This document shows positions 3,305-48,257 of a DNA stretch of 51,816 bases, piece by piece; position 1 is the first letter of the stretch; every line of letters starts with the position of its first letter. This DNA is from an uncultured Candidatus Saccharibacteria bacterium (GTDB lineage Bacteria > Patescibacteriota > Minisyncoccia > Phycocordibacterales > Phycocordibacteraceae), in the NCBI GenBank assembly GCA_964569655.1, contig CAZMTN010000003.1:1-51816 (forward strand), written 5' to 3'. The position numbers and the translations under genes are program-made. The notes below the pieces were generated by a model. That model ran no database searches and had not been told where the DNA came from. It saw only the letters and a list, made by a program, of their open reading frames with translations.

Positions 3305-4716
3305 AGCTGACTTTCTCGAAGAAATCCATCGACGAGGCACCGAAAGAATATGTGCGCATCCGCCTTACGGAGGAAACGCGCGGCACGAAGAACCTGGCGC
3401 GCGAGAACGGCGTGATCTCTATCGAGGTAGGCGCTGGGAAAGCAGAGGAAATGAACCCACGTCGCTTCATCACGCTCTGCCGCTCCATCGTCCGCGCGGC
3501 TCGCGCGCACAAGTCGAAAAAGATTGTCATCCAGTTCGATCAGTCGCCTGAGCTCTTCGGGAACCTTCAGTCCGTCACTCCTGAATGGGTATCCCAGAAG
3601 GCAGGGGAGAACTTCGAGATGGCGAACTTCGAGTTCACTACGTTCAAGACAAAGCCGAAGGAGGGCTGGAGCGAGCTCGAAGAGATCCTGCTCTGCGGGA
3701 AGTCCTCGCCGAGCATCGAGGCAGCTGCGAAGAAGGGGCAGGCCATCGGCCAGTCCGTGAATGACTGCCGCGCCCTGGCCAATACGCCAGGCGGCGACAT
3801 GACCCCCCGAGGCCTCGCCAAGGCCGCAAAACAGGCCGTAGCCGGGCTCCCGGTGAAGATACAGACCCTGGGGCAGAAGGAGATGGAGAAGCTCGGCATG
3901 GGGGCGATCCTCGGCGTCGCCAAAGGCTCGAGCGAGGAGCCGACGTTCACCATCATGGAGTACAAGGGGGCTGCCGGGGCACCCATCGTGCTCGCCGGCA
4001 AGGGCGTCACCTTCGACAGCGGCGGATTGAACCTGAAGCCCGAATCCGGCATCTACGAGATGCACATGGACATGTCCGGCGCGGCATCCGTGATTCACGC
4101 GGTCGCCCTCGCCGCGCGATTGAAGCTCAAGAAGCACGTCATCGGGCTCATTCCGTCAGTAGAGAATATGCCAGGAAACAACGCATATCGTCCGGGAGAC
4201 ATCCTCCGCTCCATGGCGGGGAAGACCATAGAGGTTTTGAATACCGATGCCGAAGGACGCCTCATCCTCGCGGATGCGATCACCTATGCGAAGCGCTTCA
4301 AGCCGTCGGTCGTGATCGACGTCGCGACGCTCACGGGAGCCGTCCTGGTTGCGCTCGGCCTCCACGCGAACGGCGTCATGTCGCGCGACAAGAAGCTCGC
4401 GAATGCGCTCGTCGAGATGGGCGAGAGCTCTGGAGATTACTGCTGGGAGCTCCCGCTCTGGGACGAGTACGAGGATTGCGTTCGCGGCACCTTCGCGGAC
4501 ATCAGTAATGTGCCGGGTAACGGGTCCTCGAGCCGCTACGGCGGCGCCATCAACGGCGGCATGTTCCTCTGGCAGTTCGCCAAGGAGCTCGACTGTCCGT
4601 GGGCGCACATCGACATCGCTTCCCGCATGACCGCAGCCCCGTCCGATGAGCTTGCCAAGGGCGCAGCCGGTTCTCCAGTCCGGCTCCTGATACAATTCAT
4701 CGAGTCATGGAAATAG
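3301..4716 (+). CDS. pepA: Leucyl aminopeptidase (M17)
   Basis: GKGVTFDSGG, MHMDMSGAA, NTDAEGRL-LAD, DVATLTGA, WAHIDIA; ATGA overlap with aspS. Confidence 0.95.
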   Translation: MKLTFSKKSIDEAPKEYVRIRLTEETRGTKNLARENGVISIEVGAGKAEEMNPRRFITLCRSIVRAARAHKSKKIVIQFDQSPELFGNLQSVTPEWVSQKAGENFEMANFEFTTFKTKPKEGWSELEEILLCGKSSPSIEAAAKKGQAIGQSVNDCRALANTPGGDMTPRGLAKAAKQAVAGLPVKIQTLGQKEMEKLGMGAILGVAKGSSEEPTFTIMEYKGAAGAPIVLAGKGVTFDSGGLNLKPESGIYEMHMDMSGAASVIHAVALAARLKLKKHVIGLIPSVENMPGNNAYRPGDILRSMAGKTIEVLNTDAEGRLILADAITYAKRFKPSVVIDVATLTGAVLVALGLHANGVMSRDKKLANALVEMGESSGDYCWELPLWDEYEDCVRGTFADISNVPGNGSSSRYGGAINGGMFLWQFAKELDCPWAHIDIASRMTAAPSDELAKGAAGSPVRLLIQFIESWK

Positions 4717-14423: not shown

Positions 14424-14431
14424 TCTGTATG

Positions 14432-14503
14432 TGACCCTACGGGGAATCGAACCCCGATTTAAGCCTTGAGAAGGCTCCGTCCTAACCGTTAGACGATAGG
14501 GCC
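14432..14503 (-). tRNA. tRNA-Glu(CUC), CCA not encoded
   Basis: Reverse complement reads GGCCCTA...GAGCC-TT-CTC-AA-GGCTT...GGTTCGATTCC...TAGGGTC-A. Confidence 0.93.
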
Positions 14504-17454: not shown

Positions 17455-17483
17455 ACCTAGGCAAGTGGTACCTTTTGGGGACT

Positions 17484-17798
17484 ATGGAACTCGCAGTGAT
17501 CAAGACCGGGGGAAAGCAGTACCTCGTCCAGAAGGGTACTAATATTTACATCGAGAAGCTCCCGGAGGGGCTCACCGCAGGTGACCCGGTCACCTTCGAG
17601 GACGTCCTCATGACCGACGACGGCTCGACGCTTACCGTCGGCACCCCGATGGTGAAGGGCAAGTCCGTAAAGGGCACCGTCATCCGCGATGACAAGGGTA
17701 TCAAGAAGGAAGTCGTCCGTTACAAGGCGAAGAGCCGCTACCTGAAGCGCCGCGGACACCGCCAGCCGTACCTCAAGGTACAGATCGATTCGATCTAA
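17484..17798 (+). CDS. rplU: 50S ribosomal protein bL21
   Basis: AVIKTGGKQY, GTPMV-G, YK-KSRY-KRRGHRQPY. Confidence 0.97.
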   Translation: MELAVIKTGGKQYLVQKGTNIYIEKLPEGLTAGDPVTFEDVLMTDDGSTLTVGTPMVKGKSVKGTVIRDDKGIKKEVVRYKAKSRYLKRRGHRQPYLKVQIDSI

Positions 17799-21765: not shown

Positions 21766-21779
21766 GCCTACAGTCTACC

Positions 21780-22697
21780 TTATAGCCAGCGGCGTATGCG
21801 GAAGTACAGAAAGACGAGGCTTGCCGCAACCACCATCATCGAGAGGATGATCCAGAAGCCGTGCTCATGCCCGACCAGCGGCACGGAGTCGGTGTTCATG
21901 CCGAACATGCCGGCGATGAGAATCGGCGGGAAGGTCACGAAGGTAATGATGGTGAGCTTCTTGATAATCTCGTTCTGCGTGCTCGAGAGGAGCGAGTCGT
22001 TGGTATCGCGGAGCTCGTGCGCCACCGCGCGATACGACTCGACGAGGTGCGCCGCATGGTCCCGCTCCGCGCGGATATGGGTCGCGTGCTCGGCGAAGGA
22101 CTTCCCGAAGTATTCGGTCGTAGACAGCGCGCTAAGCAGCGAGATAAGCACGTCGTCGTGGTGGATGAGGGCAGTCTCGAACCGCAGCAGGGTGCGCCCG
22201 ACCTCCGATATCTTGCGCACGGTGACGCGCTCGCGCCCGGAGAAGATATCGCGCTCGATCCGATCGAGCGTCTGCGCCACGTCCTCAGTCTCTCGCGCGA
22301 GCGCGCCGTAGAGGCGGCGGAGCAATCGCTCCAGGATGAACGCCGTACGCATGTGCTTGTCGGTCGCGCTAATCAGGTCCTCCGCTTCGAAAGCCCGGTG
22401 GAGGCTGTATATGGAATCGATTACCTCGTAGCGGCAGGTGATGAGATAGTCCTTCCCGATTATGAAATCTATCTCCTGATCCTTGGCGCCGCCTCCAGCT
22501 AGGGCGGTCGGGAAGTGGAGGATGGCATAGAGGTGGTCGGAAAAGGAGACGAAGAGCGGATAGGGCGTCGGCGTGATCACCTCGTGCTCGATGCCGGCGT
22601 CGACGTCGAACTCGCGCAGGACGTCGCGCAGCTCATCGCGTGTCGGGGACTCGAGATCGATCCACGTCGTCCTGCCGTAGTGATGCCGAAAGATCAT
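21780..22697 (-). CDS. corA: CorA-family Mg2+/Co2+ transporter
   Basis: TWIDL-SPT, C-terminal GMFGMN signature followed by a second TM. Confidence 0.9.
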   Translation of the reverse strand: MIFRHHYGRTTWIDLESPTRDELRDVLREFDVDAGIEHEVITPTPYPLFVSFSDHLYAILHFPTALAGGGAKDQEIDFIIGKDYLITCRYEVIDSIYSLHRAFEAEDLISATDKHMRTAFILERLLRRLYGALARETEDVAQTLDRIERDIFSGRERVTVRKISEVGRTLLRFETALIHHDDVLISLLSALSTTEYFGKSFAEHATHIRAERDHAAHLVESYRAVAHELRDTNDSLLSSTQNEIIKKLTIITFVTFPPILIAGMFGMNTDSVPLVGHEHGFWIILSMMVVAASLVFLYFRIRRWL

Positions 22698-22772
22698 GCA
22701 TTCAGTATACAAGCCGCCTGCGCACAACAAATCGCTCGCTGGGTATACATGCCTAATGCTATGATGAGATAA

Positions 22773-24035
22773 ATGATCGACGAGCGCGAAGCATTCGAAG
22801 AGTCAGAGAAATCACCAGTGCTGCGCGGCGGCATCATGTATGCCGTCGTCGCGGTCATCTGCTTCGGCGCAGGCCTCTATATGGGCGGCGGCAGCGCGCA
22901 CGACATCTTCTCGAACGTGCCGCTCATCGGCGGGCAGTTCCTCGACGCGACGCCGGCCGAGGACGCTGACCTCTCTGATTTCTGGCGCGCCTGGAACACC
23001 CTCGACGCGCGATTCGTCGAGACGCATGCCTCCTCCTCCGCGCCTACCAGCAAGGAGAAGATCTGGGGCGCTATCCAGGGCCTCGCAGCATCCTACGGGG
23101 ACCCCTACACCACCTACATGCCGCCTGAGGAGGCGAAAATCTTCGAGGAGACCATCTCCGGGAACTTCTCAGGCGTGGGCATGGAGATCGGCGTGCAGGA
23201 CGACGTCCTCACGGTCATCGCGCCGCTCAAGGGCACGCCAGCCGACAGGGCAGGCATCCGGACCGGGGACAAGATACTGACCATCGACGGCGCTCCGACC
23301 GATGGCATGTCTACCGATGAAGCGGTATCGATCATCCGCGGCGAGAAGGGGACCACCGTCACGTTCTCCATCTACCGGGACGGGTCGCTGCTTGAAATCG
23401 CGGTGGTGCGCGACACCATCGTCGTGCCGCAGATTGAGCAGGATTTTGACGCCGCCACCGGCGTCTACTACATCGCGCTCTACGAATTCAGCGGCACCTC
23501 GTCCGGTATGTTCGCGGAGGCGCTCCAGGAATTCAAGGCGTCTGGTTCGACGAAGCTCATCATCGACCTGCGCGGGAATCCGGGCGGATACCTGGCCGCG
23601 GCGGTGAATATCGCAAGCCACTTCCTCCCGAAGGGCACGGTCATCGTGACGGAGGACTACAAGGGCAAGCAGGAAAACGAGGAGCATCGGAGCCTTGGCA
23701 CGGGCGGGGTGCCCTCCGGCATCGAGACGGTCATCCTCATGAACGGAGGATCAGCGAGCGCATCGGAGATCCTTGCCGGGGCGCTCCGGGACAACGGCGT
23801 CGCGACCATCGTTGGCACCCGCTCTTTCGGTAAAGGGTCGGTGCAGGAACTCGTCGACATCGATAAGGGCTTCCTGAAGGTGACGGTCGCCCGCTGGCTC
23901 ACTCCGTCCGGGAAGAACATCTCGGACGGCGGCATCGAGCCTGATATCCTGGTAGAGCTCACGGAAGCAGACATCACTGGGGGCGTGGATGCGCAGCGCG
24001 AGCGGGCGGTGCAGTTCCTATCCACAGGGAAGTAG
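22773..24035 (+). CDS. ctpA: Carboxyl-terminal processing protease (S41, PDZ-containing)
   Basis: DPYT-Y, F-GVGMEI, PDZ, IDLRGNPGG-L, SASASEI-AGAL-D, SFGKGSVQ, W-TP-G. Confidence 0.93.
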   Translation: MIDEREAFEESEKSPVLRGGIMYAVVAVICFGAGLYMGGGSAHDIFSNVPLIGGQFLDATPAEDADLSDFWRAWNTLDARFVETHASSSAPTSKEKIWGAIQGLAASYGDPYTTYMPPEEAKIFEETISGNFSGVGMEIGVQDDVLTVIAPLKGTPADRAGIRTGDKILTIDGAPTDGMSTDEAVSIIRGEKGTTVTFSIYRDGSLLEIAVVRDTIVVPQIEQDFDAATGVYYIALYEFSGTSSGMFAEALQEFKASGSTKLIIDLRGNPGGYLAAAVNIASHFLPKGTVIVTEDYKGKQENEEHRSLGTGGVPSGIETVILMNGGSASASEILAGALRDNGVATIVGTRSFGKGSVQELVDIDKGFLKVTVARWLTPSGKNISDGGIEPDILVELTEADITGGVDAQRERAVQFLSTGK

Positions 24036-24037
24036 CA

Positions 24038-24066
24038 TTGACGGGAAGCCTTGGTGGTGGTACCTT
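24038..24066 (+). promoter_or_regulatory. Sigma70 promoter pointing into a non-coding region
   Basis: TTGACG(24038-43)-N17-TACCTT(24061-66) with extended TG. Confidence 0.65.
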
Positions 24067-24072
24067 AGGGGT

Positions 24073-24165
24073 ATCCCTGAGGCAAGCTTCTTATGGCTTA
24101 TGCTCGGTACATAAGGTACCCAGCCACTTTTTACAACTAGGCCATAAGAAATTCGTCTGAGGAAT
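24073..24165 (+). ncRNA. Candidate small structured RNA (6S-like termini, unusually short)
   Basis: Promoter upstream, terminator downstream, no ORF; nested complementarity 24073-83/24155-65 and 24088-100/24138-50. Confidence 0.5.
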
Positions 24166-24197
24166 GAGAAAGAGCCGCGGAAACGCGGCTCTTTCTC
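24166..24197. terminator. Bidirectional terminator
   Basis: GAGAAAGAGCCGCG-GAAA-CGCGGCTCTTTCTC, perfect 14 bp. Confidence 0.88.
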
Positions 24198-24199
24198 TT

Positions 24200-24979
24200 T
24201 TAGATCCGATTACGCCGATCCGCGAAGAAGACGCGGATCAGCTTCCATAGTATGTAGATGACGAAAAGGAGAAGGAGGTAGAAGAGGAACTGGAGCTGGA
24301 ATACGAAGAGGAGGCCCTTGAGGAGGCCGCCCCAGGCGCGGTCCAGCATCCCTACGGCTGCGGCAGGGCTGTTATACGTGCTTGCGCCCAAGACCTGGGT
24401 GTCTGATGAAGCTTGGGGTGGGGCGGCAGCCTCCAGGCGCTCCTCTATATAAGCGATACCGGCCTCGCGGAGGCCTTCCGTAGCGGTCCCAAGGGACCCG
24501 AGGACGGTAGCCGCCTCCGGGGAGACGGAGGTGAGGTATGCAGAGGCGTCCTTGGCCAGGCGCTCGGCCTTGGTGGGCGGGGCAGGGGAGACGGAGACGG
24601 CGACCTTGGTGTTCTCTCCCTCTTGGAGGGTTAGCGTCTCCGAGGAGCCCTTCCGGTGCGCGTTACGTATGGAGACATGGATGTCATGGTCTCCCTCCTT
24701 CGCCTTCCATTCCACTGACACGATCCTGCTCTCCCGGCTGTCTAGGGAGAATTGCGCTGTTGCTACGTTCTCCGAATCTACCCAGAACGCTACCTCGCCC
24801 TCGATATCCGCCGAGGTGCTGTTGTATACAGGCGCATACAGCCGCACCGTATCTCCATCTTCGGGCGTGAAGTCGGAGAGCCATACCGACCCTGAGGGGA
24901 AACCCGCAGGAATGGACTGCGCGAATGCCGCGACAGGGAAGAGGAGAGACGCGAGGATGAGGAGTGCCGTGCGTGTCAT
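24200..24979 (-). CDS. Secreted/membrane protein with a CARDB-like Ig domain and C-terminal TM
   Basis: Signal peptide ending AAFA, beta-rich segment (GDTVRLYA-VYN, V-W-A-EGDH-I-V), Pro/Ala linker, TQVLGA, C-terminal TM with basic tail. Confidence 0.7.
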   Translation of the reverse strand: MTRTALLILASLLFPVAAFAQSIPAGFPSGSVWLSDFTPEDGDTVRLYAPVYNSTSADIEGEVAFWVDSENVATAQFSLDSRESRIVSVEWKAKEGDHDIHVSIRNAHRKGSSETLTLQEGENTKVAVSVSPAPPTKAERLAKDASAYLTSVSPEAATVLGSLGTATEGLREAGIAYIEERLEAAAPPQASSDTQVLGASTYNSPAAAVGMLDRAWGGLLKGLLFVFQLQFLFYLLLLFVIYILWKLIRVFFADRRNRI

Positions 24980-29608: not shown

Positions 29609-29664
29609 GCTATCCTGGCGCGATACCCATGCAGGGAAGCATGGGTTGTCTCAGGGGCTTCATC

Positions 29665-33037: not shown

Positions 33038-33086
33038 TTGACAATTTACTATAACTAAGGTATACTTCACCTTAGTAAATTGTCAT
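33038..33086. promoter_or_regulatory. Palindromic, face-to-face promoter pair / operator
   Basis: TTGACA-N17-TATACT on +; ATGACA-N16-TATACC on -; 13-bp perfect IR TGACAATTTACTA(33039-51)/TAGTAAATTGTCA(33073-85). Confidence 0.65.
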
Positions 33087-33126
33087 CCAGGCATCCCGCT
33101 TGGACCTACAGCTAAGGAGAGAAGAG

Positions 33127-33549
33127 ATGCGAATTGCTTTGATTGCTGCGGTCATGGGCGCCCTGCTCTATTCGAGCGAGACGACCCATGCGAAGTTCGG
33201 TGGCAGCCGCCCTGCCTGCAAGACGGAAGAATGCAAGCGCGATCGCCTCGGCCGCTATTACCACCAGCCGCTTCTGGACCGCGTCTTCGAAATCAAGAAT
33301 CAGCCGACCTGGATCAAGCTCGACAGCAAGGCGGATGAGACCGCGTATATCGGCTTCGGCCAGGTCGACATAGAGAACAGGATCTGCTTCGTGACGCTCA
33401 AGAACTCCGGACATGCCGCTCGCGTGCAAGGTACGCAATGGGGCGGCGGCAGCAACTGGATCTTCCTGACCATCGGCCACAGGACCTACGCTGCTCGTTG
33501 CACAAGCGGCAAGGTCGTCCTCGAAGCCCAGGCGAACAATCCCGTCTAA
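33127..33549 (+). CDS. Secreted Cys-containing hypothetical protein, 140 aa (orphan)
   Basis: Signal peptide, four Cys, AAGGAG 7 nt upstream, consensus promoter, terminator. Confidence 0.7.
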   Translation: MRIALIAAVMGALLYSSETTHAKFGGSRPACKTEECKRDRLGRYYHQPLLDRVFEIKNQPTWIKLDSKADETAYIGFGQVDIENRICFVTLKNSGHAARVQGTQWGGGSNWIFLTIGHRTYAARCTSGKVVLEAQANNPV

Positions 33550-48178: not shown

Positions 48179-48257
48179 GAGTGCATCCTAGCATGAGTTG
48201 CGATATGCCTCGTTTTATGGCTGAATGGCTCGGTATTCGATAAAGGGGAGTTCTTTG

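Follow-up and report, generated by a model that had tools for sequence, protein, structure and literature searches.

A candidate small RNA gene with its own predicted promoter in the ctpA 3′ untranslated region of a patescibacterial genome

The large 5′-central bulge of canonical 6S RNA carries the pRNA template, and DapZ, MicL and MicX are examples of small RNAs (sRNAs) driven by their own promoters in the 3′ regions of mRNAs. Promoter-driven sRNAs embedded in mRNA 3′ regions are a known layout (PMC9438474), and 6S RNAs are 160–200 nt long, with the bulge set between long arms on both sides (PMC8414754). In our literature searches, no description of regulatory RNAs from Patescibacteria/CPR bacteria came to light, nor anything relevant on 6S RNA or sRNAs in Patescibacteria. 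Here we examine an intergenic element in the window, the 51.8-kb stretch of patescibacterial DNA analyzed in this study. An earlier inspection of the letters (the sequence-only reading) had described this element as a dedicated promoter, a structured RNA and a terminator, and had proposed, as an inference, a miniature 6S-like RNA or a new sRNA class. Our analysis retains the unit of promoter, structured non-coding RNA and terminator and drops the 6S-like half of that interpretation. We propose that the element may be a gene for a small non-coding RNA, restricted to its lineage, that lies within the ctpA 3′ UTR and is furnished with its own promoter, a reading predicted from sequence to which we assign a probability of about 0.5.

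The window has a G+C content of ~60%, and its genes find their nearest relatives in MAGs carrying the labels Patescibacteria, Parcubacteria or Paceibacterota. The element occupies the 164-nt gap separating ctpA from a convergent gene on the opposite strand (Table 1). Beyond ctpA, the upstream neighbors are corA, cysS, dnaB and recR; downstream, beyond the convergent gene, are genes for a 966-aa peptidoglycan-binding protein and a CAP-domain protein, together with rplI and rpmA. The product of the convergent gene is predicted to be secreted or membrane-anchored; it has no Pfam domain, and a search for its relatives came back empty. Elsewhere, the window contains a 5′-truncated tRNA at 1–63 and tRNA-Glu(CUC) at 14431–14503 on the minus strand.

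Table 1 Coordinates of the ctpA-downstream element, its predicted parts and the adjoining genes.
Feature	Position	Strand	Description
ctpA	22773..24035	+	S41 C-terminal processing protease with PDZ; Pfam Peptidase_S41 3e-48 and PDZ
Predicted sigma-70-type promoter	24038..24066	+	-35 TTGACG 24038-24043, 17-nt spacer, extended -10 TGgTACCTT 24058-66
Predicted transcription start, A	24073	+	7 nt past -10; placed by spacing rule only
Imperfect hairpin (rod), 93 nt	24073..24165	+	RNAfold MFE -35.1 kcal/mol, z = -4.7
Stable core of the rod	24088..24150	+	13-bp helix, U24101, 3-bp GCU/AGC helix, C-C mismatch, apical hairpin
Micro-ORF MAYARYIRYPATFYN, 15 codons	24093..24140	+	ATG inside 13-bp helix; GAGG 10 nt upstream
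Intrinsic terminator	24166..24201 (stem 24166-24197)	+	14-bp stem, 9 G-C, GAAA loop, TTTT
Convergent gene, 259-266 aa	24200..24979 (or 25000)	-	N-terminal signal-like segment, C-terminal hydrophobic segment

The stop codon of ctpA lies at 24033–24035, and there is no terminator between it and position 24166. The perfect 14-bp stem at 24166–24197, which the sequence-only reading had already recognized as a terminator and which we recovered in full, is the only one downstream of the gene. To end there, the ctpA mRNA must read through the hairpin described below, which makes that hairpin part of the ctpA 3′ UTR as well. The stop codon of the convergent gene (24200–24202) overlaps the U-tail of the plus-strand terminator and touches its stem, suggesting that the terminator serves both directions; the minus-strand fold contains the same terminator stem followed by UUUCUCAUU, counting only the G+C-rich upper stem. 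The terminator is also that of ctpA, so that the description of it as dedicated to the small RNA does not hold; most likely, it works bidirectionally and serves the convergent gene too. Like the 3′-region sRNAs, the candidate has a Rho-independent terminator in common with its parental mRNA.

The predicted promoter, which begins 3 nt past the ctpA stop codon, is the best-supported part of the element. Its TTGACG-N17-TGgTACCTT motif was found where the earlier reading had placed it, with the TG at 24058–24059, the -10 box TACCTT at 24061–24066 and a G-rich discriminator, AGGGGTA, immediately after. The window contains just two copies of the extended -10 TGGTACCTT, one at the candidate promoter and one upstream of rplU, where an identical GTGGTACCTT plus GGGG lies at 17465–17474, so that both copies are accompanied by a G-rich discriminator. 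The rplU promoter is laid out as TTGTCT-N17-TACCTT-TTGGGGACT-ATG; within the promoter region of this gene (L21; 17408–17487), the terminator hairpin that precedes it contains the -35 in its 3′ arm.

A TAnnnT box ending 4–12 nt before the start codon accompanies 16/50 gene starts in the window versus 4% of random positions, an enrichment indicating that the organism uses sigma-70-type -10 boxes. Examples lie at 1927–1945, 17466–17487 and 22755–22775 and, on the minus strand, at 21766–21785 and 48179–48196. All six TTGAC-N17-19-TAnnnT sites in the window are intergenic. The -10 boxes of other genes in the genome lie 6–10 nt before the start codon and Shine-Dalgarno motifs are uncommon in the window, which together suggest that the genome is largely leaderless or short-leader. 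No canonical start codon is found at the predicted 5′ end of the candidate transcript (24073), which in a leaderless genome argues for a non-coding transcript. Another near-consensus promoter, TTGACA-N17-TATACT, was observed at 33038–33130 inside a long, operator-like palindrome (TGACAATTTACTA..CTAAGGT / ACCTTAG..TAGTAAATTGTCA), upstream of a gene that starts at 33128 and is among the few led by a Shine-Dalgarno motif.

The only close relative of the locus (hereafter, L040; ENA ERZ27257315) encodes a CtpA ~90% identical to that of the window, and its DNA is 85.6% identical over 21810–24073. Between the two sequences, 22 of the 24 promoter motif positions are kept (CATTGAC, GTGGTAyCTT and GGGGTA, corresponding to the -35, the extended -10 and the start region), versus 4 of the 14 spacer positions, with the spacer length unchanged. 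Measured against a neutral identity of 63% at four-fold degenerate sites in ctpA (binomial P = 0.002; Fisher P = 1e-4), this footprint suggests that the promoter motif is under selective conservation between the two genomes. The consensus match, the identity with rplU and the L040 footprint thus place the candidate, on its sequence, beside 3′-region sRNAs whose own promoter sits where the coding sequence ends or past that point. The L040 contig (k141_855357; end at 3744–3782) stops exactly at the equivalent of 24073, the first base of the hairpin. The break could reflect low coverage or a branch in the assembly graph arising from a presence/absence or sequence polymorphism.

Downstream of the promoter, the 93-nt hairpin (hereafter, the rod) was stabler on its own than every shuffled sequence (0/200 equalled it), and together with the terminator it reached -63.4 kcal/mol (z = -8.6). 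Its G+C content is 45%, versus ~60% for the genome. No other inverted repeat in the window is as long; the rod is single-copy there, and the other strong intergenic repeats are ordinary terminators. The pairings listed by the sequence-only reading were recovered: nine of the 11 positions of the outer stem (24073–24083 with 24155–24165) pair, in weak runs of 3+4+2 separated by 1-nt mismatches; the 13-bp helix (24088–24100 / 24138–24150) comprises 12 Watson-Crick pairs and one U-G; and the apical hairpin GGUAC-AUAAG-GUACC spans 24106–24120. The asymmetric bubble of 5 versus 17 nt is also present, except that RNAfold adds the GCU/AGC helix within it, leaving 1 nt on the 5′ strand, 13 nt (CACUUUUUACAAC, 24125–24137) on the 3′ strand and a C-C mismatch. 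By base-pair probabilities, the rod is most accessible in the 13-nt bulge and at the 5′ end, where pairing is weak. The earlier length estimate of ~93 nt holds for the rod, and an unprocessed primary transcript including the terminator would measure ~129 nt. In the fold of a ctpA read-through transcript the outer stem is swapped for other pairings, while the 13-bp core and the apical part persist. An identical copy of the element was found in the Logan assembly of SRR15237806; together with its mid-contig position in the 51.8 kb, this argues against an assembly artefact, the source sample possibly being common to the two assemblies.

Despite its rod-like shape, the candidate is very probably not a 6S RNA, and the miniature-6S label lacks support. 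Scanned in full at the gathering score, the window yielded two tRNAs and no 6S in Rfam. Local Rfam scans, including RF00013, had been suggested by the sequence-only reading as a check of its 6S proposal; run on 351 nt and 103 nt at E ≤ 10, they returned no RF00013, 6S, SRP or stable-RNA model, and what appeared up to that threshold was noise (terminator look-alikes and miRNA-precursor hairpins). In the 39 related loci, Rfam found only tRNAs, and neither covariance models nor ARAGORN placed a tmRNA or tRNA at the site. The candidate is like 6S RNA in being mainly double-stranded, in having an internal unpaired region and in its housekeeping-type promoter, which is stable-RNA-like and in common with that of a ribosomal-protein gene, rplU. 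Unlike 6S RNA, it has an intrinsic terminator hairpin at its end, is about half the length (93 nt, or ~129 nt with the terminator), matches no covariance model and is absent at this site from relatives (38 ctpA loci). Its unpaired region comprises 1–5 nt on the 5′ strand versus 13–17 nt on the 3′ strand, which puts the large unpaired strand on the 3′ rather than the 5′ side. Beyond the bubble there are only 3+5 bp (8 bp) and a 5-nt loop in place of a long helix, bearing out the earlier remark that the apical stem is too short for 6S.

The -10 region GGTACCTTA (24059–24067) matches exactly, as its reverse complement, the apical 3′ arm TAAGGTACC (24112–24120), which also reads as UAAGGUACC. This match would suit an open-promoter mimic that binds the RNA polymerase holoenzyme, and it may be a coincidence; given the differences in length, architecture, model matches and distribution set out above, we consider such a miniature 6S-like RNA highly improbable. 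We consider equally improbable a minimal protein-sequestering decoy in this reduced genome, for example a compact binder of RNA polymerase or a sigma factor that replaces canonical 6S, for which the sole positive features are the rod shape and an apical GGUACAUAAGGUACC that repeats the organism's own extended -10 (promoter GGTACCTTA). In a ctpA read-through RNA, the -10 region and the apical 3′ arm could pair with each other, replacing the apical hairpin. The motif GGTACC occurs three times within 62 nt. We also noted a resemblance between GGUAC..CAGCCA in the rod and GGUCC-GGAA-GGAAGCAGCCA, which we take to be an SRP sequence; an SRP (4.5S)-like reading was rejected on the lack of a model match and on a loop asymmetry that lies on the wrong strand.

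The sequence-only reading had noted no ORF in the interval, which stands for canonical ORFs downstream of the predicted start, with the exception of the 15-codon ATG ORF (24093–24140). Translation of this micro-ORF from the short transcript would turn the element into a tiny protein gene, and the ATG, the GAGG upstream of it and an ORF that runs from arm to arm across the hairpin are in keeping with that idea. However, the predicted fold buries the start codon and the bases around it in the 13-bp helix, the genome rarely uses Shine-Dalgarno motifs and has mostly leaderless starts, and a 40-aa ORF overlapping the region was not on record in an exact look-up. We conclude that the micro-ORF is probably not translated and consider a tiny protein gene very unlikely.

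The sequence-only reading had also proposed a search of the ctpA-downstream regions of relatives. Neither nhmmer nor blastn detected a homologue of the rod in L039, L040 or 37 further ctpA loci (species representatives with CtpA identities ≤ 67%), a covariance model built from the rod found none over 305 kb, and overall the rod is absent from 38 related ctpA loci. In most of the 37 representative loci, ctpA is followed by a plain terminator or the rplI promoter. In L039, where CtpA is 74% identical and the gene order is the same, the convergent gene runs 14 nt into ctpA, leaving no intergenic region. Two metagenome pattern scans, one for the conserved promoter and one for the apical hairpin with the bubble, gave 0 matches; two viral scans for the element gave chance matches only, and blastn against plasmids and phages gave nothing. 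Since rod homologues are absent from all searched collections, the element offers neither covariation nor a conserved seed, and to call it a new sRNA class is an overstatement for something seen in one genome and as an identical copy in a second assembly.

Sampling around this genome is thin. The CtpA cluster at 90% identity contains one real relative, L040, and two unrelated fragments of 55–56 aa; these fragments (P0121/P0122; L041–L043) come from unrelated AT-rich contigs, and their filing with CtpA looks like a clustering artefact. No close relatives were found for the 266-aa and 966-aa neighbor proteins, and all six neighboring proteins are singletons at 90% identity, indicating that the lineage is barely sampled. 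The element was either gained recently in the lineage of the window and L040 or lost elsewhere.

The ctpA–rplI interval is a variable hotspot in the clade, with hairpins in L001/L002/L004, L016 and L020 that are unrelated to the rod (no homology, z < 1.5). In L001 (4246–4400), L002 (4246–4386) and L004 (4252–4400), where CtpA is 65–67% identical, a hairpin carrying TGGTATAAT in its loop follows the ctpA stop codon and shows compensatory and wobble changes between genomes. A second hairpin in these loci, whose 16-bp outer stem (TTCGTCACAGCAGAAAG...CTTTTTTCTGCTGTGACGAA) is invariant in all three genomes, belongs to the leader of a gene encoding a ~185-aa hypothetical protein, and rplI comes next. 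In L020 (4250–4425), a ~175-nt multibranched element with an 18-bp closing stem (GGGTGTTCGATTCGAGGG / CCCTCGAATCGAATCACCC) lies between ctpA and rplI; its MFE z is -4.5, it has no Rfam match at E ≤ 1 and it is unlike the rod. In L016, the region downstream of ctpA (~3835–3880) contains a palindrome, CCGCCATCACTTTATTATGAC|GTCATAATAAAGTGATGGCGG, that is perfect over 21 bp.

This variability bears on a serious rival to the sRNA reading, namely that the rod has no role in trans and is either a young palindromic insertion (an inverted duplication) or what is left of the leader of a downstream gene since lost. The hairpin would then act at most in cis, protecting the 3′ end of the ctpA mRNA or insulating the convergent genes, and the promoter would be a relic or the source of a by-product transcript. 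The whole element is indeed an imperfect palindrome, including the bubble, in that the 3′ arm equals the 5′ arm with a 12–13-nt insertion. The minus strand folds nearly as well as the plus strand (-33.9 versus -35.1 kcal/mol), as a plain DNA palindrome would, and for this reason the strand is assigned by the promoter and terminator only. The absence of the rod from the 38 loci also speaks for this rival, as does the arrangement in L001/L002/L004, where ctpA is followed by a similar extended -10 promoter that drives a protein gene with a hairpin in its leader. On the other hand, one would not expect a relic in a streamlined genome to keep a promoter motif constrained between the window and L040, a recent duplication would not look like a perfect 13-bp core with a decayed outer stem around it, and the rod shows no sequence similarity to the other hairpins of the clade. 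On balance, we regard a cis-only or relic hairpin as possible, and as less probable than an sRNA gene.

A related alternative is that the element acts as DNA, as a MITE/REP-like palindrome, a recombination site or a set of operators (GGTAC-N5-GTACC, GGTAC-N7-GTATC). Like REP/BIME elements and MITEs at convergent junctions, it is an imperfect palindrome that separates convergent genes, adjoins a terminator and is inserted relative to relatives; the L040 contig ends at the palindrome boundary, as a presence/absence polymorphism could produce, and GGTACC is repeated. Unlike these elements, it is single-copy in the 51.8 kb, has no copies in the viral, plasmid, phage and metagenome collections searched and shows no target-site duplication at its ends, and its promoter is apparently under selection. 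In addition, one of the GGTACC copies is merely the -10 region, as at rplU, and no transposase or integrase was found among the eight flanking genes scanned (18.3–29.1 kb). We therefore think a DNA-level element unlikely.

We favor an sRNA gene in the ctpA 3′ UTR for several reasons: the consensus promoter with its extended -10, its identity with the rplU copy and its footprint in L040; a fold that is stabler than shuffles and unique in the window; the missing 5′ start codon; the strong terminator; the departure of the rod from genomic G+C; and the presence of the element in two assemblies. Against this reading stand the failure to find a rod homologue in the searched collections, the closed-up junction of L039, the end of L040 at the first hairpin base, such that its promoter might drive something else, and the similar folding of both strands. 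The sRNA part of the original interpretation accordingly remains plausible and is strengthened by the promoter evidence.

In the mechanism that we propose for such an sRNA, the sigma-70-type promoter just past the ctpA stop codon would start transcription near 24073, the transcript would fold into the imperfect hairpin with its 13-bp core helix, 13-nt 3′ bulge and small apical hairpin, and transcription would end at the common terminator to give the ~129-nt primary RNA, while the same sequence would double as the 3′ UTR of the ctpA mRNA. The RNA may then accumulate as a discrete species and may serve as a riboregulator that base-pairs with a target or binds a protein, using either the 13-nt bulge or the weakly paired 5′ end. 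The sequence features, the fold stability and the promoter conservation are direct observations, from which we infer the discrete RNA and its regulatory role. Target prediction gave nothing above the window-wide background, and the 13-nt bulge and the linker gave nothing. The best duplex in a scan of 50 start regions (-24.1 kcal/mol) paired the 5′ end with codons 2–9 of an 88-aa gene at 29629, was reached by ~1% of shuffles and was equalled or beaten at non-start sites across the window.

Compared with DapZ, MicL and MicX, the candidate likewise has its own predicted promoter where the upstream coding sequence finishes, a terminator held in common with the parental mRNA, a 3′ UTR that would form a separate transcript, and no ORF. 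The described 3′-region sRNAs have conserved seeds, targets, chaperones (Hfq/ProQ) and proven expression, whereas the candidate is known from sequence alone; they also present an accessible seed followed by a terminator, whereas the body of the candidate is mostly one long hairpin.

The element does not advance the 6S question. It is one orphan sRNA candidate from a single genome, of value chiefly for transcriptome mapping to aim at. If verified, it would be an early example of an sRNA with its own promoter among Patescibacteria/CPR bacteria, and it would mean that the layout of a 3′-UTR sRNA driven by an internal promoter exists in minimal, largely leaderless genomes.
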